DNA of 64,000 nucleotides from an uncultured Nitrososphaerales archaeon (GCA_963695855.1 CAVOHZ010000003.1:320001-384000); one strand, 5' to 3'. Positions 1 to 41,976 are shown, numbered from the stretch's first letter. Notes: generated by a model from the sequence alone, not told the origin. A program made the numbers and translations.

Positions 1-6
1 CACCAA

Positions 7-1410
7 TCATGCTCCTTCTGTCCCTGTTTCTACAAGAGCCTTCTTTCTATATTTTGTAATAAATTCCGACTTTATACGTTTCAATTCGGATTCTGGCAGA
101 TCACTTAAGAGGTCCCACCCAATATCTAGCGTCTGTTCAATCGATCTATTTTCATTTACTCCCTGATTTACGAATTTACGTTCAAAATTATTAGCAATTT
201 TAACAAATTTTCTATCAGTATCACTTAATGCTTCCTCTCCGACTATTGCGGCCAATCCCCTAGCATCTTTTCCTTGGGCATATGTTGCATAGAGCTGATC
301 AGCTAGATTTCTGTGATCTTCCCTTGTTCTACCACTACCGATCCCCTGATTCATTAATCTTGAGAGACTTGTTAGTACATCAACTGGAGGTTGAATATTC
401 AATCTGTTCAGATCTCTACTCAAAACTATCTGACCTTCTGTAATATATCCAGTAAGATCGGGTATAGGATGTGTAATATCATCTGCTGGCATAGCAAGAA
501 TTGGAATTTGGGTAACAGAACCCTTTCTACCTTTAATTTTTCCTGCACGTTCATAAATTGAGGACAGATCTGTATACATATAACCCGGGTATCCCCTTCT
601 TCCAGGGACCTCTTCACGTGCTGCGGAAATTTCCCTTAGAGCTTCACAATAATTGGTCATGTCTGTGAGTATAACTAACACATGCATCTCGCGCTCATAG
701 GCAAGAAATTCTGCTGTTGTTAGGGCAAGTCTTGGAGTAAGTATACGTTCCATTGAAGGATCAGATGATAGATTTAGGAAAAGAACACTTCTACCAAGTG
801 CTCCACTTTCTTCAAACTGATTCACAAAGAAATTAGCTTCTTCACTTGTAATACCCATTGCAGCAAATACTACAGAAAAATTTTCTGAGGTTCCAAGAAC
901 TTTGGCTTGTCTAGCAATCTGTGTTGCTAGTAAATTATGTGGTAAGCCAGCACCGGAAAAAATAGGAAGTTTCTGTCCTCTGACAAGAGTATTCATCCCA
1001 TCTATGTTAGACATGCCTGTCTGGATAAATTCAGATGGTTCTTCTCTAGAATAGGGATTTATTCCAGAACCTACCAAATCAAATTTTTGTTTAGATATAA
1101 TTTTCGGTCCATTATCTCTTGGTTTTCCCAATCCGTCAAAAGTTCTTCCGAGCATTTCGTCAGATACGGAAATCATGGCGGTTTCACCCAAGAATTTTGT
1201 TGAAGTTCCGCTAGTAGAAAGTCCATATGTTGCTCCAAATACTTGAACAACTGCCAAGCCTTGTTTTGTATCAAGTACTTGTCCTAAACGACGTTCTCCA
1301 TCTGCTAACTTTATCTCCACCATCTCTCCGTAGGCTGCATTATCAACACCTTCAACAAAAATCAAAGGACCAGCTATCTTGGATAACGTTTTAAACGCTA
1401 CATTAGACAT
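7..1410 (-). CDS. atpB: A/V-type ATP synthase subunit B
   Basis: Motifs [30 protein letters not shown] and [16 protein letters not shown]; directly downstream of subunit A. Confidence 0.98.
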
Positions 1411-1412
1411 TT

Positions 1413-3179
1413 CTAAAGTGTTACCTCCAGCAACAAATTATCATACTGTTGTTTCATATTTATCTTGATCTCATTAATTAATTGTTCAACCTCTTCTTCT
1501 TTTGTCCATTTCATCTTTGATAAAAGTTTTCGTGCCTCAAGGGAACCAACCTTTGAGGATGGAACCCCTTTCTTTATAGCTTCAGCTTCCATTCTTCCAA
1601 ATTCTAATATCATAGAGAGCATCAAATTCTGTTTTTTGATAGAGGTGTAAGTATCGACCTCATCGTAAGCACTTTGCTGAAGATAGTCTTCTCGAATAGA
1701 TCGTGCAGTATCTAAAATACCTTTTTCAGGTTCAGGTAATGCATCATATCCTATCAGTTGAACAATTTCTTGTAATTCTGACTCCCTTTGCAAAATTTCT
1801 AAAGCTTCCTTCCTATGCGGAATCCATTCAGAAGAGACATTGTTGTTGTACCAGTTAGTCATATCATCAGCATACAAGGAATAACTTGTTAGCCAGTTTA
1901 TAGACGGGAAGTGCCTTCTTGAGGCTAAATTGGCATCGAGCGCCCAAAATACTCTTGTAACTCTTAAAGTATTTTGAGAAACAGGTTCAGAAAAGTCTCC
2001 TCCTGGTGGAGATACTGCACCGACTAAAGTCAGAGAACCCACCCGCTCTTCGGGAGATATTACTATTGCCTTTCCTCCCCTTTCATAAAATTCCGCTAGT
2101 CTTCTTCCAAGGTAAGCGGGATATCCTTCTTCTCCAGGCATTTCTTCCAGCCTGCCTGAGATTTCTCTCAATGCTTCAGCCCACCTTGAGGTACTATCAG
2201 CCATCAAGGCCACGTCATATCCCATGTCTCGATAATATTCACCCATCGTAATACCAGTATAGATACTTGCTTCACGGGCTGCAACAGGCATGTTCGATGT
2301 ATTTGCAACAAGAATTGTTCTCTCCATTAATGGTCTTTTTGATTTTGGATCTTCCAATTCTGGAAAAGTAGTGAGAATCTCTGTCATTTCGTTTCCTCTT
2401 TCACCGCATCCAATGTAAACGATAACACTACTGTCTGCCCACTTTGCAAGTTGCTGTTGAGTTACTGTTTTTCCACTTCCAAATGGTCCTGGAATAGCTG
2501 CTGTCCCACCCTTTGCTACTGGAAAAAAGGTATCAAGAACACGCTGTCCTGTAAGCAAGGGTGACTCTGGTGCAAGTTTGCGAAGAACAGGTCTTGCCAT
2601 TCTTACCATCCACCAACTTGATAAACCAATATCCTCAGTACCGGTATTTGTTTTCACTTGTGCAACATTTTCATTAACTGTGTATTTCCCTTCTGTTATT
2701 TCAGAAAGTTGACCACTAATACCAAATGGAATCATTATTTTGTGACTTATCAATGGAGTTTCTTGAACTTCACCAATTATTTCACCTGGAGAAACGTTTT
2801 CACCATTTTTCTTGATCGGGATAAAATCCCATTTTTTATGTTCGTCTAAAGCGGGAATAATATTGCCTCTACTGATAAAATCACCGCTTTTCTCCCTTAA
2901 TACATCGAGTGGACGCTGAATTCCATCATAAATTGACGTCAACAATCCTGGTCCAAGCTGCATTGATAGAGGTCTCTTTGTGTTGATTACTTTCTCTCCA
3001 GGTCTAAGCCCTGTTGTATCTTCGTATACTTGTATGGTGGCCTTATTACCGTCAAGACGGATAATCTCTCCGAGCAAACCTAAGTCTCCAATTCTTACAA
3101 CATCATACATTTTTGCTGCTTCAACGTCTGTTGCTACAACTACTGGACCCGAAATTCTCGAAACAATAGCAGTTGACAT
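1413..3179 (-). CDS. atpA: A/V-type ATP synthase subunit A (no intein)
   Basis: P-loop [43 protein letters not shown]; 588 aa. Confidence 0.98.
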
Positions 3180-3199
3180 ACTAATAATTCACTCCTTCA

Positions 3200-3544
3200 T
3201 CATCCCATTTTAATACTTATCCCAAGTACACGTTTAGCCAACGCCGCGATCGATTCTTCCTGAACACTTCCTTTTAAAGAGGGCATAAATAAAACCAATG
3301 GTTCAATAGATCCTTCGACCCTTGTTCTGAATAAGTGTGGAAGAGAAGCACTAACAAACTGACTAGCGATTATCAAGTTAAACTTACGAGAGAAGAAAAT
3401 ACTTTCCATAGTTTTCAGGGCCTCATCTGCTTGGTTAACTATGTATGTATCGTCTATTCCCAATAGGCGATAGCCCATTACAAGTTCTCTTTCACCTATT
3501 ACAGCAATAGCACCATCTGATTCTGATTTTTGTTTAGTTGACAT
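3200..3544 (-). CDS. atpF: A/V-type ATP synthase subunit F
   Basis: IAVIGERELVMGYRLLG N-terminus, size, position upstream of A. Confidence 0.92.
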   Translation of the reverse strand: MSTKQKSESDGAIAVIGERELVMGYRLLGIDDTYIVNQADEALKTMESIFFSRKFNLIIASQFVSASLPHLFRTRVEGSIEPLVLFMPSLKGSVQEESIAALAKRVLGISIKMG

Positions 3545-3550
3545 TTTATA

Positions 3551-4618
3551 TCACTCCAAAAGCAGCATTGATTTTATACGTTCAACGGGGATATCATAAC
3601 GTTTTCCATACGCTATTCTTTTTATGTTGTCCCATTCAGATTCTGCAGTTAAGATAAAATGAAAAATTGTTCCTATTGAGAGTGCTATATTTTTCAATCT
3701 TTTTACATATGTTTTAATAATAAATTTATCCAACGCCAGCTCAAAATCTATTAGACTGTTGGTCTTGATAAAGGTATCCAATAATTCATCTAACTTGTAG
3801 TAATCTTGTATTTTCCCTACAAATTCATTAATATTTTTTAATCCAAAAATATCAAGCAAGATATTCAATGGAATGTTCCCCCCTTCGATAAGATGTTTAT
3901 TTAACAATTCTCGATCCAGATTGGAATCCCTAGCTTTTAGTACATTTAAAATGTTCTTTTTATCTATTTGTGCTCTAAATAACTCTCTAATTACTCCCTC
4001 ATCACCTTGAAAAAACTTTAAGGATTCAAGTAATGACTTGTAATAATATGATTGAAGATCAGCCATCATAGGACCAAGGTCGGCTGTTTTTTGATAAGCA
4101 TCAAGATGTTGCATCAATATGGTTCCATATCTATATTTTATGAGTTGATTCACGACACCCTCTACATTGGTTTGCGACAAAATAATTTTCATTTCATCAT
4201 GTGCAATATTTCCCGCTGAGATTCCTGCAGGAACATTTCTACTAGATACCAGAAAATGTTCTGTTTCCGTTATTGCACGTCCTATTATTTTTGAAGATAA
4301 AATTAATTCTATATTATGAATATCCCACTTTAAAAGATAGGCTCTGACTGCAGCCCTTCCACTGAAGGGTGTTGCTTCAAGAGCAATTTTGTTTATATCA
4401 ACCATATGTCTATTGAGAGCTACTTCTAAAAGTTCTGGTGGCGAATATAGAGCTGCTGCTTTTTCTATTTCTGGACCATACGATGTAGGTTCAAGCATTC
4501 TAATAATTTCAGCAACATCTTTAGCTTGAGCAAGACTTAAAATAAAATCCTTAGATAGAAAGCTCATCGAGAGTGCCTGTAATCTTCCAAAAGAAGAGGA
4601 ATATGATGAGGTTGTCAT
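3551..4618 (-). CDS. atpC: A/V-type ATP synthase subunit C
   Basis: 355 aa helical protein with WDIHNI and C-terminal EWDNIKRIAYGK; operon position. Confidence 0.9.
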   Translation of the reverse strand: MTTSSYSSSFGRLQALSMSFLSKDFILSLAQAKDVAEIIRMLEPTSYGPEIEKAAALYSPPELLEVALNRHMVDINKIALEATPFSGRAAVRAYLLKWDIHNIELILSSKIIGRAITETEHFLVSSRNVPAGISAGNIAHDEMKIILSQTNVEGVVNQLIKYRYGTILMQHLDAYQKTADLGPMMADLQSYYYKSLLESLKFFQGDEGVIRELFRAQIDKKNILNVLKARDSNLDRELLNKHLIEGGNIPLNILLDIFGLKNINEFVGKIQDYYKLDELLDTFIKTNSLIDFELALDKFIIKTYVKRLKNIALSIGTIFHFILTAESEWDNIKRIAYGKRYDIPVERIKSMLLLE

Positions 4619-4619
4619 A

Positions 4620-5183
4620 CTACTTTATCATTCTCTCAAGAAGAAAACTTTTTACATCATCTTCATGAGTTCTTAATAACTCTTCAATGGTGAGATCGAG
4701 CTCTCTTGTTCCATTATTATCCTCTGCTAGAATTCCTCCGATAGTATCGATAGTTGCTCCGAGTGTTACGTTCATAGCTTTAATAGCCATACTATCATCA
4801 ACATTAGAATGAATTACTACGTTCTTACCCAAATTCTTTTTTGCATGGTTGACCATCCTTTCCAGAGTTTTTTTGTATTCCGGTTTCTTGGTATAATTTT
4901 TTAATTCTTGTCTTATTGTATTAAAGGTGGAATCCATGTTTTCATTAATTGCATCAAATAGGATCTTTTTTGCGTTTAACCTAGCTGTCTCCACTATCCT
5001 AGCCGCATCTCTTTGAGATTTTACTTTTGCTTCATTAGCATAAAACTCTTCGAGCTCTTTTATTGTAGTCTCCTTTGATCTTTCAATAGCTGTTTTTTTT
5101 TCAGCAAAAGAAGTATCAATGATATCTATTTTTCTTTGTTTCCTCTCATCAATCTCTCGCATGAAAGTGAACAGGCTTGCCAT
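4620..5183 (-). CDS. atpE: A/V-type ATP synthase subunit E
   Basis: Coiled-coil N-terminus, IDTIGGILAE...DLTIEE C-terminus; lies between K and C. Confidence 0.85.
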   Translation of the reverse strand: MASLFTFMREIDERKQRKIDIIDTSFAEKKTAIERSKETTIKELEEFYANEAKVKSQRDAARIVETARLNAKKILFDAINENMDSTFNTIRQELKNYTKKPEYKKTLERMVNHAKKNLGKNVVIHSNVDDSMAIKAMNVTLGATIDTIGGILAEDNNGTRELDLTIEELLRTHEDDVKSFLLERMIK

Positions 5184-5198
5184 CTAACAAGTCGCCAC

Positions 5199-5543
5199 TT
5201 AGAGTATTCCTAACAGTAGAATTATTCCTAGCACGAAACCGATAATCCAAAGAGTCTCAGGGATTACGAAGAAGAATAGAACTTGTCCAAACTTCTCTGG
5301 TTTCTCTGCTATTATCCCCATTCCTGCCGCACCTATACCTTGCTGAGCATTTCCCGTACCTATAAGACCACCTGCAATCGCTATTGCTGCCGCAATTGCC
5401 AATAATGGCTTCGTAAAATCTGATTTAGTTGCTGCTGATGTCTCTTGGGCGAACACTTGTGTAGAAGATAACGTAAATACAGCTATTGCCAATCCTGCAA
5501 TTATAGTAATAATTGACAATTTTGAACCATTATATCGCATCAT
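5199..5543 (-). CDS. atpK: A/V-type ATP synthase subunit K (c, proteolipid) with N-terminal signal peptide
   Basis: Hairpin GIGAAGMG...EKPEKFG...IPETLW with ion-binding Glu; leader ending VFA-Q. Confidence 0.92.
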   Translation of the reverse strand: MMRYNGSKLSIITIIAGLAIAVFTLSSTQVFAQETSAATKSDFTKPLLAIAAAIAIAGGLIGTGNAQQGIGAAGMGIIAEKPEKFGQVLFFFVIPETLWIIGFVLGIILLLGIL

Positions 5544-6154
5544 TACTAGATAAGGTTACTTATGTGGTTATATTAAGAGTTTTCTCCAAAAATCATAAGA
5601 ATTTGTATGCAACCTATGAAAGAACAGGATAGTTTATTAATTAATTTCAACTAATGAATAATAGATTGCATTTTTTAACTCCTATATCATTTAGAAATTC
5701 GAAAAGATATTTCATTAAGCTCTAGATTAAATCTATTAGATAAGAAATAGTAGATGCGTTTTTGGGAGGTAACTGAGGTCAAATAGATTCTTCTATAATA
5801 CTTAGTATCGTATAAAAATATTCAACTTGCTCATTGTTGAATTTCTCCGCTTACCCCGATTTTATAAATTTCATAAAAGTTCGACGTAATTTGCAATGCG
5901 AATTTAGTGAACCAAGAATTGATATTTGGATTTACGTTACTATCATATTGATGTTACCGATGATTTCTGATTGGTTTGCTATTTTTTGTTAATTATTTGA
6001 CACTTCGATCTAATATTCAATAATACAAAAAAAAATTTTTAATTGCTGGTTATACGGTCATATTATGTATGTAAAACATTCCTGAAAATTTGTTATTATA
6101 TTGATTTTAAATTAAGTCGAATCAACAAAAAAAGTCAGGAGAATTTCAATTAAC

Positions 6155-29071: not shown

Positions 29072-29542
29072 TTAGATAGAAATTATCATCATAAATAATG
29101 TTACTAATGTCAGACCATAAATAAAATGACCTGATAAACTCAATATAGCTGCACCTTTCCCAAGAGGATGATTCAATGGATCTATTTTGGTAATTGGTTT
29201 ATGAATTGGAAATAGAGTAAGGATCCAAAGGAAAAAACCATATGATAATCCCAATGGCAATAAATGAATATCTTTTAAAGATGGAATAACCATCAAAGCA
29301 ATTAGTAGCCCAATTCCTCCTAGACTTCCATTTATAAAATGTAATAAAAATATTCCCCAAAAATGAATATTATCAGATTTAACTCTAAAAAACTTGCATG
29401 TTAGAACTTGGTTCTCGTGCCATTCTACTATGCCAGTTAATCCCCATCTTTTCCAAAATGGAATTTGTATAATTGTCATAACTCCAGTTGAAATAAGACC
29501 AGCAAAGAGGCTCACCAAAATTCCGTATAGATCAATTTCCAA
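29072..29542 (-). CDS. 4-TM membrane protein with two intramembrane His
   Basis: LLHFING and GHFIYG motifs; similar to the 33559 ORF. Confidence 0.8.
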   Translation of the reverse strand: MEIDLYGILVSLFAGLISTGVMTIIQIPFWKRWGLTGIVEWHENQVLTCKFFRVKSDNIHFWGIFLLHFINGSLGGIGLLIALMVIPSLKDIHLLPLGLSYGFFLWILTLFPIHKPITKIDPLNHPLGKGAAILSLSGHFIYGLTLVTLFMMIISI

Positions 29543-29796
29543 ATTTACCTTTCACGACTAGGATAATTTCTAATTAAACATTAGTGATTTGGGACATGTA
29601 TATTCCAACAGTTTTAGATTCAAAATTTCATTATTAAAAATTTTTCTGAAAAGGTTGAATCCAACACCTCTGTTCAATAGATTAATCAAGCAAACTCACG
29701 CCTGGGTTGCAAAATATACAGTACTAGATAAACGATTTTATTCTCGGACAGTAGCATCGAGCTCATAGTTATAATCTATTATTAGATATTAATTTA

Positions 29797-31392
29797 TTAG
29801 ATATAATACAATTCCCTTGTCAATATAATCTCTTTTTTGTGTTCCACAATTGGTTTGGGATAGCCTCCTACTGATTTAGTAGATTTGTCAATTGCGGAAT
29901 TAACTTTATCCCAATGATGTATTATAGTTTTAGAAACCTCTTTAAGTTCAGGAATCCATTTTTTTATATAAATACAATCGGGATCAAACTTTTTCTGTTG
30001 TAACCAGGGATTAAAAATTCTGAAATAAGGTTGAGCATCACAGCCAGTAGATGATACCCATTGCCAATTACCATTATTAATTGAGGGGTCATAATCAACA
30101 AGTTTTAACGCAAAATATCTTTCTCCATATCTCCAATCAATATGTAAATCCTTTACCAAAAAAGACGCAGCTATTAATCTCAGTCTATTATGCATAAAAC
30201 CTGTTTCATTTAGTTCTCTCATTCCTGCATCAACAATTGGAAAACCTGTTTTTCCGTTGTACCATGCCTCAAATTTCGTTGGGTCATTTTTCCATTCTAT
30301 GATGTTATTTCTATATCTTTCGTGAAAAGAAGTATGAAAGACAAAAGGAAAATGAAATCCTATATATGAAAAAAAATCTCTCCAATATAATTGCTTTAGC
30401 AAAGGATGATTATAACCTAATTCCTTCTGTATTGCAAAATATACTTCCCTAATGGAACATATCCCAAACTTAAGGTAAGCAGAAAAATGAGTTGATAGAT
30501 TGTCTAATGAATATTTTTCGTTTTCTCCCTTATCTTTTTTAAATTTATACATTAATTCAGATATTAAATCTTGATATCTTTTTCTTGTTCCCACCAGAGT
30601 TGATATTGTTAAGTCAGGATTATTTTTAGGAGCTTCTTCAGATATAATTTGCGAAAAAAATTTCTCAAGATTGTCAATTTGTTTTAAATCATTAAAACTT
30701 GTTAGTTTTTTGCTATTGAAACTCATGAATTTATTCTTGTATTTAACTATATCAAAGGAATTTTCCCTTCTTATTGGTCTCTCAATTGCTTTGTTATAAT
30801 ATTGAGAAAATACTTTAAATGGTCTATTATTTGAATTTAGTATTTCTTCTGGTTGATTAATCAGAATATCTGGACATTCAATAAATTCAATATCATGGGT
30901 TTTGCAAATTTCCTTGATCAATATATCTCTTCTTATGCTATATGGAGTATAGTCTCTATTAACAAAAATAGCTTCAACTTCCTTATCTCCTTGTATTATC
31001 GTCTTTATTACTGACCCTGGATCTCCAGCTAGAACAATTAGTTTAGAAGATATACTAATATTGTTTTTTCTTCTCTTTAATTGATTCTTTTCCATAGAAA
31101 ACTGATAAAATTGGTTTTGAAGATCTAACAATGATTCTTTTAGGAATCTTTGTAAATGAATTCTCCTCTGTTTTCGTTTTAAAAGCAGATTAGGAGCTAT
31201 TGGTAAAGAAAACGAAGAATACAATAATTTTGATGATGTTAATAAATTACTATCTAAAATGAAGAGGCAATAAACTAAACTTGAAAAATGTACTGCATCG
31301 AGCAATGCTGTATTATTTTCTAATCGTAAATCTCTTCTAAAAATAAAAATACTTTTCTTATATTTTTGTCTCATTCTGCTTTCTTGATTCAT
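29797..31392 (-). CDS. phr: Deoxyribodipyrimidine (CPD) photolyase / cryptochrome family
   Basis: FRRDLRL, WRDFF, GFPIVDAGMREL, MHNRLR, DWRYGE, NNGNWQW, RIFNP. Confidence 0.95.
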   Translation of the reverse strand: MNQESRMRQKYKKSIFIFRRDLRLENNTALLDAVHFSSLVYCLFILDSNLLTSSKLLYSSFSLPIAPNLLLKRKQRRIHLQRFLKESLLDLQNQFYQFSMEKNQLKRRKNNISISSKLIVLAGDPGSVIKTIIQGDKEVEAIFVNRDYTPYSIRRDILIKEICKTHDIEFIECPDILINQPEEILNSNNRPFKVFSQYYNKAIERPIRRENSFDIVKYKNKFMSFNSKKLTSFNDLKQIDNLEKFFSQIISEEAPKNNPDLTISTLVGTRKRYQDLISELMYKFKKDKGENEKYSLDNLSTHFSAYLKFGICSIREVYFAIQKELGYNHPLLKQLYWRDFFSYIGFHFPFVFHTSFHERYRNNIIEWKNDPTKFEAWYNGKTGFPIVDAGMRELNETGFMHNRLRLIAASFLVKDLHIDWRYGERYFALKLVDYDPSINNGNWQWVSSTGCDAQPYFRIFNPWLQQKKFDPDCIYIKKWIPELKEVSKTIIHHWDKVNSAIDKSTKSVGGYPKPIVEHKKEIILTRELYYI

Positions 31393-31668
31393 ATCAAAAA
31401 TTATATTTTATTTATAGTAATAATAAATTCATGAAATAATTTGTTCTAGTGCCCAACCTTTCATCTTTGAATTTAATAGATACAGCTACTATTTTCCACA
31501 TACATAACCAGTCATACAAAATAGGAAAAAATTAGTATCTAAATTTCAAAAACAAGAAACATCATATTTAAAATGAGTCAAAAAAATATGAGTAATAGTG
31601 CCTAATTTAGCAATTAGGTCAATAATTGAAATAAGTTATATTCTATGTTTTATTTATAGTGAATAAAA

Positions 31669-33169
31669 ATAGCTAACGAAAATTCTTCAAATATATTTGT
31701 AAAACGTTCTTTAATACCATATAACGTAAATACTGTTTTTGATTTTCATACGCGAAACGGTGCCTTAGAAAGACTTGTCCCTCCTTGGAGTGGATTGGAT
31801 ATAGTTGACCAAAAAGGAGGGATTAATAATGATGCTATTTCTATTTTTCGGCTTAATTTAGGTCCAATAACTTTCAAATGGGGTTGCTAAACATTTTGGT
31901 TACATTCACAATAGGCAATTTCAAGATAAAATGATAAAAGGTCCATTCAAAAAATGGATTCATACTCATTCTTTTATACCTCAACGGTCCAATCAATGTA
32001 TTTTAGAAGACAAAGTAGATTATGCTGCGAAATTTGGAAAAATAGAATCTAAAATAATACAAAAAAGAATCCAGAATTACCTGGATCAGTTATTTCTTTA
32101 TCGTTCTCGTATTTTAATTAGTGATCTCTATCTTGAAAAAATGGTATCGGAAAAGGGGAAAAGTATTCTTATTACAGGATCTCATGGCTTAATAGGATCT
32201 GCACTTATTCCGTTATTAACGAATATAGGTGATCATAAGATTACTCGTCTTGTAAGAAGTACAATTAATAAAAGTAATCATTCTACTTCAAATGAAGCTA
32301 ATGAAAAAATAATATACTGGGATCCTAAACATAAACAACTAAATCATCATGACCTTGAGGGGTTTGACATAGTCATTCATTTGGCAGGTGAAAATATTTT
32401 TGGAAGGTGGACAAATACAAAAAAACAAAAAATATTTGATAGTCGTGTTGAGGGTACGAAACTTTTTGTTGAGGGTACGAAACTTTTGTCTGAATCTTTA
32501 ACTAAACTATCAAATCCTCCATCATTATTAATATGTGCGTCAGCAATTGGATATTATGGAGATAAGCCCAACGAATATCTTACAGAGGATAACAATCCGG
32601 GACAAGGATTTCTATCTGAGGTATGTCAAAAATGGGAAAATGCAACACTAGATGCATCTAAGGTAGGAATAAGAGTAGTAGATACACGTTTTGGTATCGT
32701 ATTAAGTCCAAAAGGAGGAATTTTAAAAAAATAACTCACATCTTTCAAATTAGGTCTTGGCATATCAATTGGATATAAACATCAGTATATGAGCTGGGTC
32801 TCAATAGAGGACGTTATAAAAATTATTTTTTATTCTATAATAAACCCATCAATCCAAGGAGCTGTTAACGTAGTATCACCAAATCCAGCTACAAATCTGG
32901 AGTTTTCCAATATGCTCAAAAAATTATATAATACAAAGTTGTTAATATCAATCAATCAAAATATAACCGAACTCATTTTTGGACAAATGTCTGATGAATT
33001 ACTATCTACAATAGCTATGTCATTCCCAAAAAAGTTAGTTTCAACTGGATACAAGTTTTTTAATCCAGATTTGGAGGACACACTCAGATTCCTACTTGGA
33101 AAAATGAAATTAAATAATAATAATAGTCTTCAGAGATCAAATATGAAAAATCAAAACATGTCAAAATAA
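31669..33169 (+). pseudogene. SRPBCC domain fused to TIGR01777-like NAD-dependent epimerase, frameshifted
   Basis: VFDFH...ALERLVPPW upstream of 31931 in another frame; GPFKKWIHTH; ITGSHGLIG; HLAGENI; MSWVSIED; frameshifts near 31880 and 32730; start approximate. Confidence 0.8.
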
Positions 33170-33498
33170 AAAAAACAAATATTAGGATAAATTATAATCT
33201 CGCTCAAATTGGTAAAACAAATGAATTAAGTCATGTAAGAATATAAGAATATCTTTTAATCCGATAGAGAGTAATTTCTCAGACCTATCTACAAATTTAG
33301 AAAAATAAGATTAGTTATGAATCAGTTTTTCTATTTCATTTCTTCATATTTATTAAATATAAATCATTATCCTAAATATTTTTTAATATCTTTTAAATTG
33401 TGTTGATGATGGTTTTAAACAAAAATAAACCTTAAAATATTTTGATTTTTGAGAAGTAAATCCATCTCCTGTATAACTATCAATAGTTAAATTATGCT

Positions 33499-33509
33499 AG
33501 TTGGCACTA
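33499..33509 (+). promoter_or_regulatory. Candidate operator AGTTGGCACTA
   Basis: Near match to the motif at 36757-36770 and 36919-36932; upstream of a TATA-like TTTTATAT element. Confidence 0.5.
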
Positions 33510-33558
33510 TGTTGTATATTACATCCATGTTTTTATATTATAAATCTGAATTCAGTTT

Positions 33559-34125
33559 ATGTTGAAACATGATCACAGCACGAGGAATATAATATTATAC
33601 TCTACGTTAGCAGGATTTATATCAGCTTGGGCAATTTCAGGATTATTAGTTATTGTTGATATTATATCACAAACACCAATAGGTACGTTCTTTGCAGTAA
33701 TAGGATCATCTCTTGGTTATTATGATACCTCTGTATCACAATATATTGGATTTGCACTACATATTGCAACAGGTACTGTAGCAGGTAATATTTTTGGTCA
33801 AATAGCTTTATTTTGGAACAAACTATTCCCATATAATTTCAAATTAGGAATAACTTATGGAGTAATAGTTAGTGTTTCTCTGTGGGCAATATTATTCCTA
33901 CCTCTAGCTACATTTGTAATTCAACCCAAACTCGATGCATTTGCACTATCTGCTCCAAATCAATATCTATTTATAATAGCTAACCACTTTCAAGGACTTT
34001 ATCCACTTGTCGCCATAGGATCTTTAGGATTTCACATAATATATGGAATTGTGTTGGGATTCATGATATGGAGAATGATCGATTTAAAAGTATTTGTACC
34101 AATCAACAGAGAACCAATACAATAA
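33559..34125 (+). CDS. 4-TM membrane protein with two intramembrane His
   Basis: ALHIATG and FHIIYG motifs. Confidence 0.82.
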   Translation: MLKHDHSTRNIILYSTLAGFISAWAISGLLVIVDIISQTPIGTFFAVIGSSLGYYDTSVSQYIGFALHIATGTVAGNIFGQIALFWNKLFPYNFKLGITYGVIVSVSLWAILFLPLATFVIQPKLDAFALSAPNQYLFIIANHFQGLYPLVAIGSLGFHIIYGIVLGFMIWRMIDLKVFVPINREPIQ

Positions 34126-34381
34126 TCTTTAAGATTTGGATACAGAAATATGAAAATCCTTGTTGCAACAAGCATGAAAACCCAGGAAACTACTTCACCA
34201 TTTTTTATATCTGTTATAATAAAAATGAAGATCGAAGATTTAACTAGTATCGTTGTGAGATGAAAATAAATATATAAATTATTTTATCACATTGAGGACT
34301 AATTAGAATGTTAAAAAACTATCGTTACTTTTTATAAAATGAAATTCTATTTTGAAAACAAACTATAAGTAAGAACTGTAT

Positions 34382-35755
34382 ATGTACAATAACAAAAATA
34401 AAAAACAACAAAATTTAAGAGTGCTAGTAACTGGAGCAACTGGATTTATTGGTAGTAGAATTGTTAAGAGACTTTTAGCCGATAGAAAATATTATGTTAG
34501 ATGTATGACAAGAAATCCCGATTGTATTTATGAACTTTTTAATTTAAGTGGTGATATCATAGATGTTGTAAAAGCTGATGCTTCAAATTATTTAGAATTA
34601 GTAGAAGCCCTAAAAGAGGTGGATGTGGCTTTTTATCTTATACATTCTATGGAAGGTTCATCAAAAAAATGGAAAGAATTCTCTAAAAGAGATAGAACTG
34701 CTGCTGAAAATTTTGCTAAAGCAGCCTCAATAACAAATACAAAAAGAATAATTTACCTGAGTGGTCTTATTGATACAGATCATAAGGATTTATCTGAGCA
34801 TATGAAAAGTAGAAAAGAAGTAGGAGATATTTTAAGGACTTCAAAGGCCTACGTTACAATATTTCGTGCTGCTGTTATTTTAGGTCAAGGAGGTGGTTCC
34901 TTTCAAATGTTACAATATCTAGTGGAAAGGCTTCCGATGATGGTATGTCCTAAATGGGTGTTGACTAAATCACAACCTATATCAGTAGATGATGTAGTAA
35001 CTTATTTAGTCAAGTCAATAGAAACCAAGGATACAGTTAGTCAAGATTATGATATAGGCGGACCTGAGATTCTTAGCTATGTAGATATGATGAAAAGATA
35101 TTCAAGTATTCTAAAAAAATCATTAAAAATCATTATTATTCCATTTTTGACTCCTAGGCTTTCCTCTTATTGGATTGATCTTATTACTCCTGTAAAAGCA
35201 TCACTTGCTAGACCATTAATAGATAGTTTAAAACATGAAGCAGTAGCTCATAATAATGAAATCCAAAAGTTAATTCCTATTAGACTAATGAACTTTGAAG
35301 AATCTATTAGAACTGCAATGAAAGAAGAAGTAAGAAGAACTAAGGTAACAAAAAAACAAAAAACATCAGACTCTCTTAACAGAACAATATTGTTTTTTTC
35401 ATTGATTTCTTTGGGAATAATTGGTTCAACATATTATTTTTTAGATAATAGAAGCGACATTGTAACCCCTCTCTGGATAATATTAGCCACTGTATGGTAC
35501 TTTGGAATTTTATTTGCTTTATTTTTCGTCAAAAATGGTGCAAGACTAGGTTCAATGGTAGGAGGTATTATAGGATGGATAACATTAGTATTCTGGTTAT
35601 TCAATAGCATACATTTGATAACTCATAATTTGATTGATTTCTCATCTCAAATTGTTGTGATTATGATTCGAAATTTTGTTGGAGCCATTGTAGCTGGATT
35701 GGTTATAGCTGCTTCCCATAATCTCTTCCATAAAATCAGAATATTAGGAAATTAA
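34382..35755 (+). CDS. Atypical SDR / NAD(P)-binding oxidoreductase (YbjT-like) with C-terminal TM domain
   Basis: VTGATGFIG, FYLIHSM, LSEHMKSR, QPISVDDV, LTPRLSSYW, ARPLIDSL; about 4 C-terminal hydrophobic helices. Confidence 0.88.
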   Translation: MYNNKNKKQQNLRVLVTGATGFIGSRIVKRLLADRKYYVRCMTRNPDCIYELFNLSGDIIDVVKADASNYLELVEALKEVDVAFYLIHSMEGSSKKWKEFSKRDRTAAENFAKAASITNTKRIIYLSGLIDTDHKDLSEHMKSRKEVGDILRTSKAYVTIFRAAVILGQGGGSFQMLQYLVERLPMMVCPKWVLTKSQPISVDDVVTYLVKSIETKDTVSQDYDIGGPEILSYVDMMKRYSSILKKSLKIIIIPFLTPRLSSYWIDLITPVKASLARPLIDSLKHEAVAHNNEIQKLIPIRLMNFEESIRTAMKEEVRRTKVTKKQKTSDSLNRTILFFSLISLGIIGSTYYFLDNRSDIVTPLWIILATVWYFGILFALFFVKNGARLGSMVGGIIGWITLVFWLFNSIHLITHNLIDFSSQIVVIMIRNFVGAIVAGLVIAASHNLFHKIRILGN

Positions 35756-35818
35756 AATAAAACAAGAAAATAAAATAAAATAATTTCTTAGAGACATATG
35801 GACATTAAGTTCCTCATT

Positions 35819-36706
35819 TCAATTATTCATTAGCGATTTCATAGTAGTAATTATATCATCAATTTTCCCGAGATCAAGATAAACCTTTTCATATTTTTCT
35901 AATAATTCAATTTGAGAGTTAGATGCTAATTTAATTGCATTACCTCCAACAACAATAGGATTATTAAAAGATTTACGAATTTCTTTTACTAATCTGGTTA
36001 CTGAACTTATATTTTCTTCTAACGTAACAGATATGATAACGAGACTGGGATTGTTATTATTCAAATACGAGTTAATAGAATTCGTTGGAAGAGGAGAGGT
36101 AATATTAAAAACTTCATAGCCTTTTTGAAGTAATAATGATTCAATGATTTTACATCCTATACTATGAAGTTCTCCTTCAGGAGTACATATTATTATTAGT
36201 TTAGGATTTAATGAATTTTTAGAAATTTTTTTATTAGCATTTTTTTGATTGATTAAATCAATTAGATTATTTACTGCATTACTGCATACATGTTCTGTTG
36301 CAACATCGATTTCTCCATTTACCCATTGATCACCTATCCTATATAATACAGGTATCAAGATTTTCTCATAAAAATCTAATAACGAATATACTGATTTTGT
36401 ATATTCATTGTATATGTTCATCAATTCATTTATTTGATACATTTTTAATCTTTCGAAAAGTGTTTCTTGTAATGTTTCATTTACTTTCATGGATTTTGAG
36501 AAATCAAGGTTATGGTGAGCCAAAAATTTTATAATTGCAGATTCATTTCGGTATTCTTCTGTAATTTTATTAATATTTATTTGAGATAGTGGACCTAAGT
36601 ATTGCTTCGTTATTTGTTGAGATGTTTGTTTTTCTTTATTCCATTTACTTTCAACAATATAAGCATAATCAATATTTTTTACTTTTTTTATTCTAATATA
36701 CACCAA
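35819..36706 (-). CDS. CarH/LitR-like cobalamin-binding protein with non-MerR N-terminal domain
   Basis: W-x9-EH (WVNGEIDVATEH), PEGELHSIG (ExHxxG), ISVT, VVGG. Confidence 0.88.
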   Translation of the reverse strand: MVYIRIKKVKNIDYAYIVESKWNKEKQTSQQITKQYLGPLSQININKITEEYRNESAIIKFLAHHNLDFSKSMKVNETLQETLFERLKMYQINELMNIYNEYTKSVYSLLDFYEKILIPVLYRIGDQWVNGEIDVATEHVCSNAVNNLIDLINQKNANKKISKNSLNPKLIIICTPEGELHSIGCKIIESLLLQKGYEVFNITSPLPTNSINSYLNNNNPSLVIISVTLEENISSVTRLVKEIRKSFNNPIVVGGNAIKLASNSQIELLEKYEKVYLDLGKIDDIITTMKSLMNN

Positions 36707-36756
36707 TATGGTATAATTTTCAACTCTTTTATTTATATTTAGTGCATAACTGAACT

Positions 36757-36932
36757 TATAGTGCTAACTAATATTTAGATAAAAGAATCCAATGTAATTT
36801 CAGAAATAATATATATAAAATAAGAAACATTGTACTAATAAATTTTAAACAGAATATTCTATAAAATAAAACTTTTATTTCTGCCATTTATTTAATAATT
36901 CAACATTTTCGTTCATAATAGTTAGCACTATA
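36757..36932. promoter_or_regulatory. Divergent promoter region with a 14-bp inverted motif pair
   Basis: TATAGTGCTAACTA (36757-36770) and TAGTTAGCACTATA (36919-36932), each upstream of one divergent gene. Confidence 0.6.
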
Positions 36933-36971
36933 GAAGATAGTTTGTAGTCGTTTTAAATATTTATTTGCAAA

Positions 36972-37316
36972 TTGTACACTAGAGATATGAAACAGACTAT
37001 TGATTATCCACTAGAATTCTCTGTTAAGATGACTTTTGGCGAGAGTTACCTTGTAGGAAAAGCTTCTAGTAACGGTAGAAATTATAATATAAATATTCAG
37101 GGAGGACGAAAAGGAATAGTTTTACCTAGAGAAATGGTAAAAGCATTTGGTGAAGTTATTGTTAGCTTTTTTACTGAAAAGAAAAATGAGATAATGTTAA
37201 CTGCGAAAGTAGAGGCGGGTTTGGATTGGATCGAAATCTATGATGATTTCTTAATTTGGTCTTTGGCAAATGATCTCCCTATATCCATGATCATTGATTA
37301 TCAGAGATTGACCTAG
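36972..37316 (+). CDS. Hypothetical protein divergent from the CarH-like gene
   Basis: 114 aa ORF; start may be the internal ATG. Confidence 0.65.
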   Translation: MYTRDMKQTIDYPLEFSVKMTFGESYLVGKASSNGRNYNINIQGGRKGIVLPREMVKAFGEVIVSFFTEKKNEIMLTAKVEAGLDWIEIYDDFLIWSLANDLPISMIIDYQRLT

Positions 37317-38109: not shown

Positions 38110-38733
38110 TTGAAAATAGAACAAAAATTTGAAGAATCTAGTACATATTCACTATTCTTGTTTGCAATTAGATCAAATGTAACAAGAGACTATTATCTAA
38201 GAAGATTAAGGATTTTCTTTAATCATATTAATCTAGAACCTGATAAAACAATGGAAGAAAGATTTAATTACTTTGCTAGAAAAAGAACAAAAGATCCGAA
38301 TTGGGCATTTAATGCAGTAACAAAATTCTTGCAATTTCAAAAGGAAAGGGTTAAAATGGAAGAGATTACAGAAGCGACACTTCGTAATTTCATAAAAGCA
38401 ATAAAATTATTCTGTGAAATGTCAGATATCAAAATAGAATGGAAAAAGATAACTCGAGGATTACCAAAGATAAGAAGACATGCTGATGATAGATCACCAA
38501 CAATAGAGGAAATACAGAAAATTTGTGAATACCCTGATAGACGGATAAAAGGGATTGTCTATACAATGGCTTCATCTGGGATAAGACTTGGTGCATGGGA
38601 TTATTTATACTGGAAGGATATTCAACCAATAGAACGTCAAGGTAAAATCGTAGCAGCAAAAATTATTGTCTATGCTGGAGACGATGAAGAGTATTTTTCG
38701 TTTATAACTCCTGAAATTAGTAGTACAACCTAA
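38110..38733 (+). pseudogene. Tyrosine recombinase/integrase, C-terminally truncated
   Basis: SSGIRLGAW catalytic Arg box; lacks HxxR and Tyr; highly similar to the 47953 ORF. Confidence 0.85.
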
Positions 38734-38862: not shown

Positions 38863-40197
38863 TTATGAACCGGTTAAAATTTTTTGTTTCAACCACAATC
38901 TTTCAAAAAGTGCTATATAAGTTTGTAGATGTGTTTCTATATTAGTATGCATAGTGGTAAAAAATTCATCATTCTGTTTATCTTGTTTACCTTTTTCTAA
39001 TACCACTACTTCTTGTCTGTCTTTTATAAAAAATGAAATTTCTTCAACCTGTATACCAGGATTAACAATCTCTATCACTTCATTATCCTTCATTGAATCT
39101 ATTATCGATTTTTCAAATTTTCCTACAAATATTATTCTAATTGTTTTATTAGTTAGTGTCTTCAAATTTAAAACTATATCTTTTAATTCCTTGTAATCCA
39201 AGTATTGTGAATTTCCTAAAAAAATATCTAACTCCTCAGTAACATTCTTTATCATAGTCTTTAGAGCCGAATTAACTTGAGTACCAACTAGCTGTTCTAT
39301 AAATTCCTTGTTGGATTGTTCTTGCTGACTAGTATTTGATTGTTTATTTTTCATATATTCATCAAGTAGTACGGTATGAATTCCTCTATTTATAACGCCT
39401 AGAATTTTTATATAGTAAACAATGCTTGATAATAGGAATAAATAACTAAACGAGTAGAACATCTCCCACATCCATTCAGTATTTAGTATTAATTCGTCAC
39501 TTATTTGAGCTGCCAACGTATAACCTGCGTCTCCAATACTAAGAAATATCATGGATATTGAGAATAAGAACCAATGATAAATGTAAGGGTCTTTTTTGGA
39601 TAGACCAACTAGGTTCAGAATTGAGAGAATTAGTAATGAAATATCACCGATATAATATAATATACTATAAAGTATTTCGACCAGTTCGGTTTGAAAATCA
39701 AAATTTTGAAAATTCTGAATAAAAGGAAAAATAAGAATTAAAGGTATAATAATTGAAACAAACAAAATAATTTTTCTTTTTAATGGTTTTTTCTCTTGTA
39801 ATGTTCTAAATGAAGAATAGAGATTATAAATAAAAAATGTATATCCTATTAAAAAAATAATGTCGATATTTAATGGATACGGTACTGGATTTTTCAAGAT
39901 CAATTGATAAAATAAATATCCACCTTCTGATATTGTCCAAAATAATATTCCTAATGTGATAAACCGGATTCTTTTAAATTCGGGATTATTTCGTTTTCTA
40001 AAAAATAAGGAAATTGAAAAAATTAGACATGCTGTTAATAGTATAAAAGGAATTATATTGTTTATTTCATTTGTTCTTTTAGTATCTATCAGAAAAATTA
40101 ATACATATATAAAAAAAATAGTAACAGAAGCACCAGGAAGTATCCCAAATAAAATAAATTTAAATTCGGTATTATCTTTGATTATATATAAATCCAT
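38863..40197 (-). CDS. Multi-TM sensor-like protein with C-terminal cytoplasmic domain
   Basis: About 8 TM helices, VPYP..DI motif, ends YIALFERLW. Confidence 0.75.
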   Translation of the reverse strand: MDLYIIKDNTEFKFILFGILPGASVTIFFIYVLIFLIDTKRTNEINNIIPFILLTACLIFSISLFFRKRNNPEFKRIRFITLGILFWTISEGGYLFYQLILKNPVPYPLNIDIIFLIGYTFFIYNLYSSFRTLQEKKPLKRKIILFVSIIIPLILIFPFIQNFQNFDFQTELVEILYSILYYIGDISLLILSILNLVGLSKKDPYIYHWFLFSISMIFLSIGDAGYTLAAQISDELILNTEWMWEMFYSFSYLFLLSSIVYYIKILGVINRGIHTVLLDEYMKNKQSNTSQQEQSNKEFIEQLVGTQVNSALKTMIKNVTEELDIFLGNSQYLDYKELKDIVLNLKTLTNKTIRIIFVGKFEKSIIDSMKDNEVIEIVNPGIQVEEISFFIKDRQEVVVLEKGKQDKQNDEFFTTMHTNIETHLQTYIALFERLWLKQKILTGS

Positions 40198-40602: not shown

Positions 40603-41976
40603 TTAACTTACCTCCAATTTCGTTACGGTCTGGAGTAACCATAATTTTTCGAACGTTGTTATGTATATATAGGTTATCTCTTCGTTGTCAGAATAAGTTA
40701 CATCATACGCTGTATCCTTATTATAATCGATAAGATCCGTAGTCGAAACTAGTAGCAACTTATTATAGTCAGGCACTATCATGATATCATTATTCTCTAG
40801 TTTTCTTTCAAAGATCCGTACATGAGCAACCTCGCGATAACTATTAATAATTCTATCATCGACACCTAACGGGAAAAGAATTCTTACTAAAATATTTGAC
40901 CTTGTTTTTTTCTTCAAAAATTTTAGGATACTTTGTGTTTCTTTTCTTTTCAAGGTATTTATATTGCAGAACAAAATAGCGATCTCGTCTTTTGCGCCTT
41001 TTATTATTTCATCAATACCATTCTCAACCAATCTGAAATCTTGTATGTTTTCTTTATGCAATTGATCCTCTTCGGGAAGTTCACCTTTGTCCTTCACCGA
41101 AATATTATTCAGATATTTTGCCGCATAGTCTTCCATCATTGAATACTCCAAGTTTTCGCTTAGTATATGAGTTAGTTTGTAATACCAAAATAATGAGGCA
41201 AGAATACATAGATAGGAAAAAGCCCACATTGCTTCCCATATCAATTCAGTCTCTAAAAGAAATTCTTCATCAACAATCGCTATATTCAAATAGAAAAAAT
41301 CTGTGATAGTTGTTAATATCAGGAAAGAGGTAAATAATATCCAGTGATAGGTATAAGGGTTGTTTCTAGGTAACTTCGTTAGAATGAGAATCGAAAGAGA
41401 TAATAAAAAAATATCACTGTAGTTATTATTGGTACTAATCACAATATCAGGCCACTGGGATTGAAAATCTACTTCCTGGCTAAAAACTATGATAGTTGTT
41501 ATTACAGGTGATACAGATGCGAGTGTTATCACAAACGCAATCACCTTAGGTTTTATTAATCCATCTTTGTTTATAGTCTTAAATGATCTGTAGGTAAATA
41601 GAATTAGAGGTGCATAGCCTGCAACATAGAATATTTCCCCGACACCTGGGTATGGAGCATCCGTATCTAATACAATTTGATAAAATGAATATGTAAATTC
41701 ACCAAGAAACCAGAGAGTTATTCCTACGAAAAGCAGCTTAAATCTCTGAACTTCTTTTACTCTAGGATTTGAAAGTATTATAAACAAGGACATACAGGTA
41801 GATGATCCCAACAAAACTGCGGACGTTGTGCCTATGTATTTGTCGCCATCAATAACAAATAGTATTACATGTATAAACATGATAGCTATAGCTATAGTAA
41901 TTATAAATCCGAATAACAAATATCTCATTTCATCCTTAATTTTAAAAGCAGATTCAATATTTTTTGTTCTGCTCAA
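40603..41976 (-). CDS. Paralogous multi-TM sensor-like protein
   Basis: APYPGVGE, PYTYHW, VRILFP, YITTFEKLW align with the 38863 ORF. Confidence 0.75.
   Translation of the reverse strand: MSRTKNIESAFKIKDEMRYLLFGFIITIAIAIMFIHVILFVIDGDKYIGTTSAVLLGSSTCMSLFIILSNPRVKEVQRFKLLFVGITLWFLGEFTYSFYQIVLDTDAPYPGVGEIFYVAGYAPLILFTYRSFKTINKDGLIKPKVIAFVITLASVSPVITTIIVFSQEVDFQSQWPDIVISTNNNYSDIFLLSLSILILTKLPRNNPYTYHWILFTSFLILTTITDFFYLNIAIVDEEFLLETELIWEAMWAFSYLCILASLFWYYKLTHILSENLEYSMMEDYAAKYLNNISVKDKGELPEEDQLHKENIQDFRLVENGIDEIIKGAKDEIAILFCNINTLKRKETQSILKFLKKKTRSNILVRILFPLGVDDRIINSYREVAHVRIFERKLENNDIMIVPDYNKLLLVSTTDLIDYNKDTAYDVTYSDNEEITYIYITTFEKLWLLQTVTKLEVS

Follow-up and report, generated by a model that had tools for sequence, protein, structure and literature searches.

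Does an ammonia-oxidising archaeon read light through a cobalamin-dependent transcription factor? We addressed this question in a window of 64,000 nucleotides (the whole stretch of DNA analysed; GCA_963695855.1 CAVOHZ010000003.1:320001-384000) from an uncultured Nitrososphaerales archaeon. A cluster of genes at 29072-37316 of this window includes one, at 35819..36706, for a B12-binding protein, here called the regulator. The sequence-only reading of the cluster had proposed a CarH-like photoreceptor in control of a photoprotection module, in an ammonia oxidiser. The regulator is best explained, from its sequence and predicted fold, as a previously undescribed kind of transcription factor, in which an archaeal three-stranded beta domain is fused to a CarH-type B12 module.

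The source genome (3.55 Mb, ∼29% G+C) encodes archaeal AmoA and a PduO-type cob(I)alamin adenosyltransferase. The database proteins closest to its own carry the label Nitrososphaeraceae. On these grounds the organism is a soil-type ammonia-oxidising archaeon (AOA) able to make adenosylcobalamin (AdoCbl), in agreement with the earlier designation.

The B12 module of the regulator

The protein at the centre of the question is encoded as follows.

35819..36706, minus strand: regulator, 295 amino acids (aa); beta domain, four-helix bundle and Rossmann B12-binding domain, from Pfam, AlphaFold, Foldseek and a family alignment

In the AlphaFold model of the regulator (predicted local distance difference test, pLDDT, 88.2), a three-stranded, putatively DNA-binding beta domain (residues 1-∼65) is followed by a four-helix bundle holding W128 and E138H139 (residues ∼69-162) and by a Rossmann B12-binding domain holding H181 (residues ∼170-294). 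Pfam placed B12-binding_2 (PF02607) on residues 80-151 (8.6e-12, 45.5 bits, cut-off 23) and B12-binding (PF02310) on residues 171-258 (4.2e-10, 39.9 bits, cut-off 32.1). The two signatures that had been claimed for this protein, W-x9-EH and ExHxxG, were readily recovered from the translation as W128-x9-E138H139 and E179-L-H181-S-I-G, and align with the corresponding motifs of TtCarH and CtMerR. Across a 33-sequence alignment of the regulator family, H181, G178 and P176 do not vary, and conservation is at least 90% at W128, E138 and H139. In CarH, the W-x9-EH cap residues contact the adenosyl group.

Among solved structures, CtMerR of Chloracidobacterium thermophilum was the closest relative of the B12 module both in sequence (8JBS, phmmer 1.4e-11) and in structure (8JBS, Foldseek E 1.2e-11, TMt 0.77). 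The two CtMerR entries (8JBS/8JBT) headed the Foldseek matches, followed by photocobilins and then by TtCarH chains (E ∼1e-9); methionine synthase and corrinoid proteins ranked lower or had poorer TM-scores. Like the regulator, CtMerR lacks a His beside the Trp; unlike it, CtMerR is bacterial, carries a MerR DNA-binding domain and keeps the GxxxP element intact. In PMC11796333, CtMerR is reported to be light-responsive and the signature of light-responsive cobalamin-binding domains is given as GxxW, EH, GxxH and GxxxP. The regulator has three of these four elements (G125xxW128, E138H139 and G178xxH181) and differs in the fourth. Since the protein has the W-x9-EH cap, the His ligand and all but one of these four elements, we infer that the C-terminal module binds AdoCbl. 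Prediction of a two-copy homodimer for residues 66-295, with an alignment, gave a score of 0.12 against a mark of 0.42, which counts neither way.

The regulator is nevertheless not a member of the CarH/LitR or MerR/CarH families, though we propose that it works like them. There was no MerR match in Pfam, either with the whole regulator at E up to 0.01 or with residues 1-76 at E up to 1. The NCBIfam model for CarH (NF052513) matched over the B12 part only, at 48.5 bits (E 6.8e-13) against a cut-off of 400 bits. Membership is rejected because the MerR domain is absent and the CarH cut-off is far from reached. The label CarH-like was therefore right for the B12 module and wrong for the N-terminus, where three beta strands and short helices stand in the model in place of a MerR-type domain. 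Automatic labels on family members, 'light-induced transcriptional regulator' or 'corrinoid protein MtbC1', are names given by similarity only.

[quoted passage not shown] This copy may be a variant without the B12 cap, reminiscent of CarA.

Operator sites and their predicted reader

We examined the upstream regions of 42 regulator homologues, consisting of the window copy and 41 loci chosen for best scores and complete genomes, which is a non-random sample. Alignment of these regions revealed an operator consensus, TTRGCACTAK on the coding strand, in direct repeats ∼19 bp apart. The forward GCACTA core was found between -20 and -120 in 28/42 regions, compared with 2.3% of random windows (20,000, drawn from these loci), and the reverse orientation in 3/42. 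The best second site, often degenerate, lay 19 bp downstream in 21/37 promoters and 18-20 bp downstream in 30/37. A relaxed tandem pattern was present in 24/42 regulator promoters, as against 0.23% of random windows. In these promoters a TTATATA/TTAAATA box comes straight after the proximal repeat, ∼27 nt ahead of the start codon. From this geometry, transcripts would be leaderless and the proximal repeat would occupy the position of the BRE, the element recognised by transcription factor B (TFB).

Six sites of this kind were located in the window, scored with a position weight matrix (PWM) that was built from the operator sites themselves, so that its core is fixed by construction.

36756..36770, minus strand: distal repeat R1 of the regulator promoter; GCACTA core 58-53 nt upstream of the start; PWM 18.0
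36737..36751, minus strand: proximal repeat R2 of the regulator promoter; core at -39 to -34, abutting a TATA-like element at 36730-36738 (BRE position)
36919..36933, plus strand: operator site before the divergent gene of no known family (36972); exact inverted copy of the R1 13-mer; PWM 16.8
33498..33512, plus strand: operator site before the membrane-protein gene memB (33559); core at -55; PWM 19.9, the highest in the genome
31444..31458, minus strand: operator-like site before the photolyase gene; core at -60; PWM 15.0
31593..31607, minus strand: second operator-like site, between the photolyase and TIGR01777 genes; core at -209 from the photolyase start; PWM 15.6

The 19-bp offset between R1 and R2 is the mode across homologues. 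The intergenic region of 265 nt that separates the regulator from the 36972 gene holds the exact 13-mer twice, inverted, and these are its sole matches without mismatch in the window; allowing up to three mismatches, it was not enriched there (33 matches, 30.5 in shuffles). The site before the 36972 gene recurs at the same place before its homologues at L041 and L039. A forward core lies at -52 to -66 in 8 of the 10 homologous memB promoters, with one further core at the start codon. Equivalents of the photolyase sites were seen at -57 in one genome of the same genus (L075) for the nearer one, and at -171 and -169 in L075 and L076 for the farther one. The tandem pattern was absent upstream of homologues of photolyase (0/17), of the membrane-protein gene memA (0/10) and of TIGR01777 (0/3), and was found once before a homologue of the short-chain dehydrogenase/reductase (SDR) gene (1/18). 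No operator was found in the 256-nt gap before the SDR gene at 34382 or in the upstream gap of memA at 29072. Both genes would join the regulon by operon arrangement, each following, on its own strand, a gene that bears a site.

Which part of the regulator could read these repeats? Conservation within the protein is highest over residues 1-65, and the model of this N-terminal domain (pLDDT 92.9) consists of three long antiparallel strands and then two short helices. No Pfam family was found for it, and it matched unnamed clusters only in the ESM Atlas. Used alone, the domain gave a best E of 0.15 in Foldseek against the PDB, and a best Z of 4.4, to ribosomal proteins, in VIA-align over 48,161 chains; both results are unconvincing, and neither shows the fold to be new. 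A PDDEXK_9 match (E 0.0024, 18.2 bits) fell under the 25.5-bit cut-off and was rejected.

A search with residues 1-76 as phmmer query over 1.8 billion representative proteins returned 101 matches of two architectures: B12 proteins of ∼290 aa, and proteins of ∼165-185 aa that share the N-terminal domain only. The shorter proteins keep the invariant R5, K7, Y14, V18, W22, Q31 and Y36-L37-G38 of the regulator. Their C-terminal part is unrelated to the B12 domain and has no Pfam family. They come from Woesearchaeota/Nanoarchaeota genomes of the DPANN archaea. As query, a single DPANN protein found no relatives; an alignment gave 125, of which 80 loci were kept (L090-L169, alignment A4). Promoters were compared at 78 of these, two being dropped for want of upstream sequence. 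The most enriched words upstream of the DPANN genes form TRGTGCCTAA, present in 53/78 loci where ∼2.7 would be expected, and in the other orientation in 5. In 43 of the 53 this motif stands 11-20 nt ahead of the start codon, and its reverse complement holds the RGCACTA core of the AOA operator. The DPANN proteins thus combine the same beta domain and core motif with a different C-terminal domain and a single, oppositely oriented site, placed between TATA box and start codon.

Because relatives with nothing but the N-terminal domain in common have this core motif upstream of their own genes, it appears that the beta domain reads the motif and that both families autoregulate. This pairing of a shared domain with a shared motif is the strongest evidence for the beta domain as reader of the RGCACTA core, and makes it very likely that this domain is the DNA-binding part of the regulator. 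We consider it highly probable that the regulator is a sequence-specific, autoregulating transcription factor.

Distribution, cluster genes and wider targets

The regulator family was found only in families of ammonia oxidisers, in a class-wide and in a phylum-wide sample. It is present in 119/301 class genomes (by family 21/39, 91/180 and 6/9; 0/72 in the other twelve families) and in 39/401 genomes of the phylum-wide sample, with 0/341 in other families. In some genera of the class-wide sample it is scarce, with 1/26 and 2/14 genomes. Since the class genomes are related to one another, counts of gene co-occurrence are not independent. The SDR gene occurs in 91/301 class genomes, 86 of which also have the regulator; in ∼62 of these 86 the two lie within 3 kb, by hand count of coordinates. 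Photolyase is present in 16/201 genomes of the order, and 15 of the 16 have the regulator too. Both the gene family and the genes around it are met again in three archaeal families, and the cluster is more than chance.

In the window, the regulator is accompanied by the following genes.

29072..29542, minus strand: memA, multi-pass membrane protein downstream of the photolyase gene on the same strand; no Pfam or NCBIfam match
29797..31392, minus strand: photolyase/cryptochrome-family protein; PF00875 90.5 bits, PF03441 257.8 bits (7e-77)
31663..33169, plus strand: SRPBCC-TIGR01777 (YfcH/DUF1731) fusion pseudogene; NCBIfam TIGR01777 on two pieces
33559..34125, plus strand: memB, multi-pass membrane protein; weak, sub-threshold DUF6789 match
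34382..35755, plus strand: atypical SDR of NAD_binding_10/NmrA, NDUFA9-like type (Pfam), ending in a hydrophobic stretch of ∼130 aa
36972..37316, plus strand: divergent gene of no known family, 114 aa; no Pfam or NCBIfam match

Several of these genes had been named from the sequence before. Pfam agrees with an NAD(P)-binding SDR, and its PDB relatives are epimerases of the complex-I 39-kDa subunit type; the gene is probably co-transcribed with memB. The photolyase belongs to its family as announced. It may be of the supposed cyclobutane pyrimidine dimer (CPD) subclass or of another: the best-scoring NCBIfam models describe class I CPD enzymes of the 8-hydroxy-5-deazaflavin (8-HDF) type, with all matches below equivalog cut-offs. 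The two membrane proteins described as related are both there, memB adjoining the SDR gene, the regulator gene or both in 8 of its 9 homologue loci, and memA homologues adjoining the regulator gene in 7 of 8; relatedness between memA and memB was not detected by BLASTP (best E 0.11). The divergent gene remains without a family, and a search of the ESM Atlas gave no usable match. Its homologues, found in 2/41 loci, align from residue 6-7 onward, and its true start is likely to be the ATG at 36987. The SRPBCC-TIGR01777 fusion is recognisable and broken: its two TIGR01777 pieces score 158 and 67.8 bits where the cut-off is 207, no intact frame exists, and the lesions are a missing start codon, a +1 frameshift near 31880-31890 and an in-frame TAA at 32732-32734. 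The pseudogene also contains a perfect 21-nt tandem duplication (32446-32487) that repeats seven residues.

Within this genome, well-placed operator sites are confined to the window cluster and to a paralogous cluster on another contig (C11). There a regulator paralogue of 46% identity is accompanied by membrane-protein and SDR paralogues, by the UV endonuclease UvdE and by the same sites. The UvdE gene (L033 2897-3798(-)) is frameshifted, its first ∼30 residues lying in another frame than the remaining 263. A DDE transposase gene lies at the end of this contig (L033:3-740(-)). Positions ∼1450-4010 of C11, including two operator sites, are identical in opposite orientation to ∼400-3000 of contig C1, and this shared end is probably a repeat that broke the assembly.

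A PWM scan of 40 foreign homologue loci (729 kb, score at least 14, open reading frames (ORFs) of at least 70 aa) found 109 sites; in 42 of them the core falls 50-59 nt ahead of an ORF's first start codon. The recurrent site-bearing genes are those for the regulator itself, memB, SRPBCC fusions and several proteins of no known function. The most frequent predicted target in Nitrosopumilaceae-type genomes is a secreted protein of ∼300 aa without Pfam family, which has one or two sites at about -55 in 12/40 loci. Examples are listed here.

L054:8262-9167, minus strand: secreted protein of ∼300 aa
L055:5744-6640, minus strand: secreted protein of ∼300 aa
L063:10617-11501, minus strand: secreted protein of ∼300 aa

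An amine-oxidase/phytoene-desaturase-like flavoprotein recurs as predicted target in 5 loci. In two marine-type genomes, a TFB paralogue with TFIIB-repeat and zinc-ribbon (L055:10447-11355(+) and L065:13109-14023(+)) lies near the regulator with an operator 48-60 nt upstream, and may be a regulated alternative initiation factor.

Five genomes have the SDR and lack the regulator. In four of them the surroundings of the SDR contain no site that reaches PWM 14, and two of the four hold decayed remnants of the regulator. In genome G171, an N-terminal fragment of the regulator with two in-frame TAA codons (C1:1044252-1044545) directly follows a second SDR copy (1042672-1044087), which looks like a decayed second cluster.

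Beyond the cluster in the window, 38110-38733(+) encodes 207 aa with a weak match to the N-terminal part of XerA-type tyrosine recombinases (32 bits, cut-off 220) and may be an integrase remnant. Further on, 38863-40197(-) and 40603-41976(-) encode paralogous proteins of ∼450 aa with a multi-pass membrane N-terminal half, a soluble C-terminal half and no family match. The G+C content is 34-38% at positions 1-6000 of the window and 27-32% over the remainder.

The proposed light switch and its alternatives

How might such a regulator work? We build on the domain architecture, the signature residues, the conservation and phasing of the operator, and the co-occurrence of N-terminal domain and motif. 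The regulator would bind TTRGCACTAK direct repeats ∼19 bp apart, in its own promoter with the proximal repeat on the BRE beside the TATA box. Single strong sites 47-60 nt before starts would mark memB with the SDR gene downstream, the 36972 gene and the photolyase gene. By analogy with CarH, an AdoCbl-bound oligomer on the repeats would block TFB and TATA-binding protein (TBP) in the dark; green or near-UV light would cleave the Co-C bond, the oligomer would dissociate and the genes would be expressed. We regard this complete light-switch model, in which a beta DNA-binding domain and a CarH-type AdoCbl light module control a regulon, as rather probable. Dark repression is favoured by the overlap of the proximal repeat with the BRE and by the location of the DPANN site where transcription starts; the preference for repression over activation is a modest one.

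The model resembles CarH and class I LitR of Thermus thermophilus, Myxococcus xanthus and Bacillus megaterium in the four-helix bundle and Rossmann domain with W-x9-EH and ExHxxG. Those proteins are AdoCbl-dependent light-sensing repressors with a direct-repeat operator over the core promoter, autoregulation and, in some species, photolyase as a target, and the same three traits are predicted for the archaeal regulator. They differ in having a MerR winged helix where the archaeal protein has its three-stranded beta domain. The regulator moreover lacks the His after the Trp, has S/TxxxP for GxxxP and would act on an archaeal BRE/TATA promoter, and carotenoid genes were not seen in the clusters of its genome. 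Photocobilins, B12-GGDEF and AerR/PpaA-type proteins likewise use a CarH-like B12 domain as light module (fold matches 8J2W/X/Y). Their outputs are partner proteins or enzyme domains, whereas the regulator has a fused DNA-binding domain of a predicted new type.

Several findings weigh against the light switch. We infer DNA binding by the N-terminal domain, and a convincing relative of that domain was not found among solved structures. In the B12 module, V follows W128 in place of the His of TtCarH, which becomes the upper ligand once light-exposed; the GxxxP element reads T203xxxP207 in the regulator and S/TxxxP in the family, with P207 invariant. The exact 10-mer has 34 copies genome-wide, close to the ∼30 that we estimate from base composition, so the operator signal lies in placement rather than abundance. 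Strong single sites lie upstream of the BRE, an archaeal position typical of activators; dark-repressor logic may not hold there, and the strong distal sites would suit an activator equally well. Most predicted targets are of no known function, two genes of the module are broken in this genome (TIGR01777 in the window, UvdE on C11), and a regulator-negative draft genome (G190, 120 contigs) keeps tandem operators beside its SDR gene.

The photolyase connection is also narrower than had been supposed. A forward core precedes the photolyase gene in 4/16 loci only, in this genus and in one distal case, and none is in tandem. Photolyase lies within 10 kb of the regulator in 4 of the 41 chosen loci, in one of them directly downstream of the regulator gene; control of photolyase is therefore not the main conserved role of the regulator family. 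The synteny expected across homologues is strong for the SDR, and for photolyase it is real and confined to a minority. Likewise, the idea of a controlled photoprotection module gains from the predicted operators at the regulator, the memB/SDR pair, the 36972 gene and, in this genus, photolyase, and loses from the scarcity of linked photolyases and from the decay of TIGR01777.

Could the B12 module report corrinoid supply or cellular state instead of light? Non-photic roles are known for B12-binding domains too, and many family members come, by name, from soil archaea. The missing GxxxP element, one of those named in PMC11796333, and the missing TtCarH-type upper-ligand His would fit such a B12-status regulator. 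It is opposed by the cap residues, at least 90% conserved and in contact with the adenosyl group in CarH, and by the nearest solved relatives, which are photoreceptors. The predicted targets include no gene for cobalamin biosynthesis, cobalamin transport or a B12 enzyme; they do include photolyase, and UvdE lies in the paralogous cluster. We consider sensing of B12 status unlikely.

A light-dependent activator would also account for much of the promoter evidence. The holo or photolysed protein at about -55 would recruit TFB/TBP, and the proximal site would be autoregulatory only. The target-promoter sites upstream of BRE/TATA are tightly phased, as the 42/109 in the -50 to -59 bin show, and tandem sites occur mostly at the regulator's own promoter (24/42, against 3/61 at other promoters examined). 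Many target promoters, however, have a degenerate second repeat over the BRE, the DPANN site between TATA box and start codon is a repressor position, and the known B12 photoreceptor regulators are repressors. We hold activation by light to be a minority possibility.

It is quite improbable that the motif is a specialised promoter element for an alternative TFB, with the B12 protein not its binder. The proximal repeat does occupy the BRE position, and the TFB paralogue near the regulator in two marine loci bears the motif. This explanation leaves aside the distal repeat 19 bp further upstream, the DPANN core downstream of the TATA box and before genes that share the N-terminal domain only, and the loss of most sites where the regulator is lost. 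Least credible of all is a methyltransferase-type corrinoid carrier, as in the automatic JGI label 'methanogenic corrinoid protein MtbC1': the NCBIfam corrinoid-protein matches are weak (best TIGR02370, 44.2 bits, cut-off 215.3) and all far under cut-offs (215-450 bits), no methyltransferase gene was seen among the annotated neighbours of regulator homologues, and neither the conserved extra N-terminal domain nor the operator evidence fits a carrier.

With the light switch as the preferred reading, the regulator, a likely sensor, would be the first B12 light switch known in archaea. Our full-text literature search found no B12 photoreceptor or CarH-like regulator in AOA or other archaea, in keeping with the earlier statement that no characterised example was known. 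The word 'archaea' is absent from the main text of PMC11796333 and PMC10979010, whose supplementary sequence lists might include the regulator family. In the literature searched, no light sensor or light-responsive regulator of AOA was found described.

We see about even chances for a broader picture. AOA would use their own cobalamin as the chromophore of a light-sensing transcription factor, whose beta head would read RGCACTA in AOA and DPANN alike. The light regulon would be conserved, comprising photolyase and a membrane-anchored SDR in soil members (with a UV endonuclease in the cluster), and a secreted protein, a flavin oxidase and an alternative TFB in marine members.

Where nitrification takes place in the ocean and at soil surfaces is shaped by light, which inhibits ammonia oxidation by archaea. 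The locus offers a candidate sensor, a predicted DNA site with base-level coordinates and a list of target genes. To B12 photobiology it would add an archaeal branch with a new output domain, and to archaeal transcription a candidate DNA-binding domain with a predicted operator, common to AOA and DPANN; a compact green-light switch for archaeal hosts might also be derived from it. If true, the proposal would give a first molecular point of entry to the perception of sunlight by these globally important nitrifiers and to their response.

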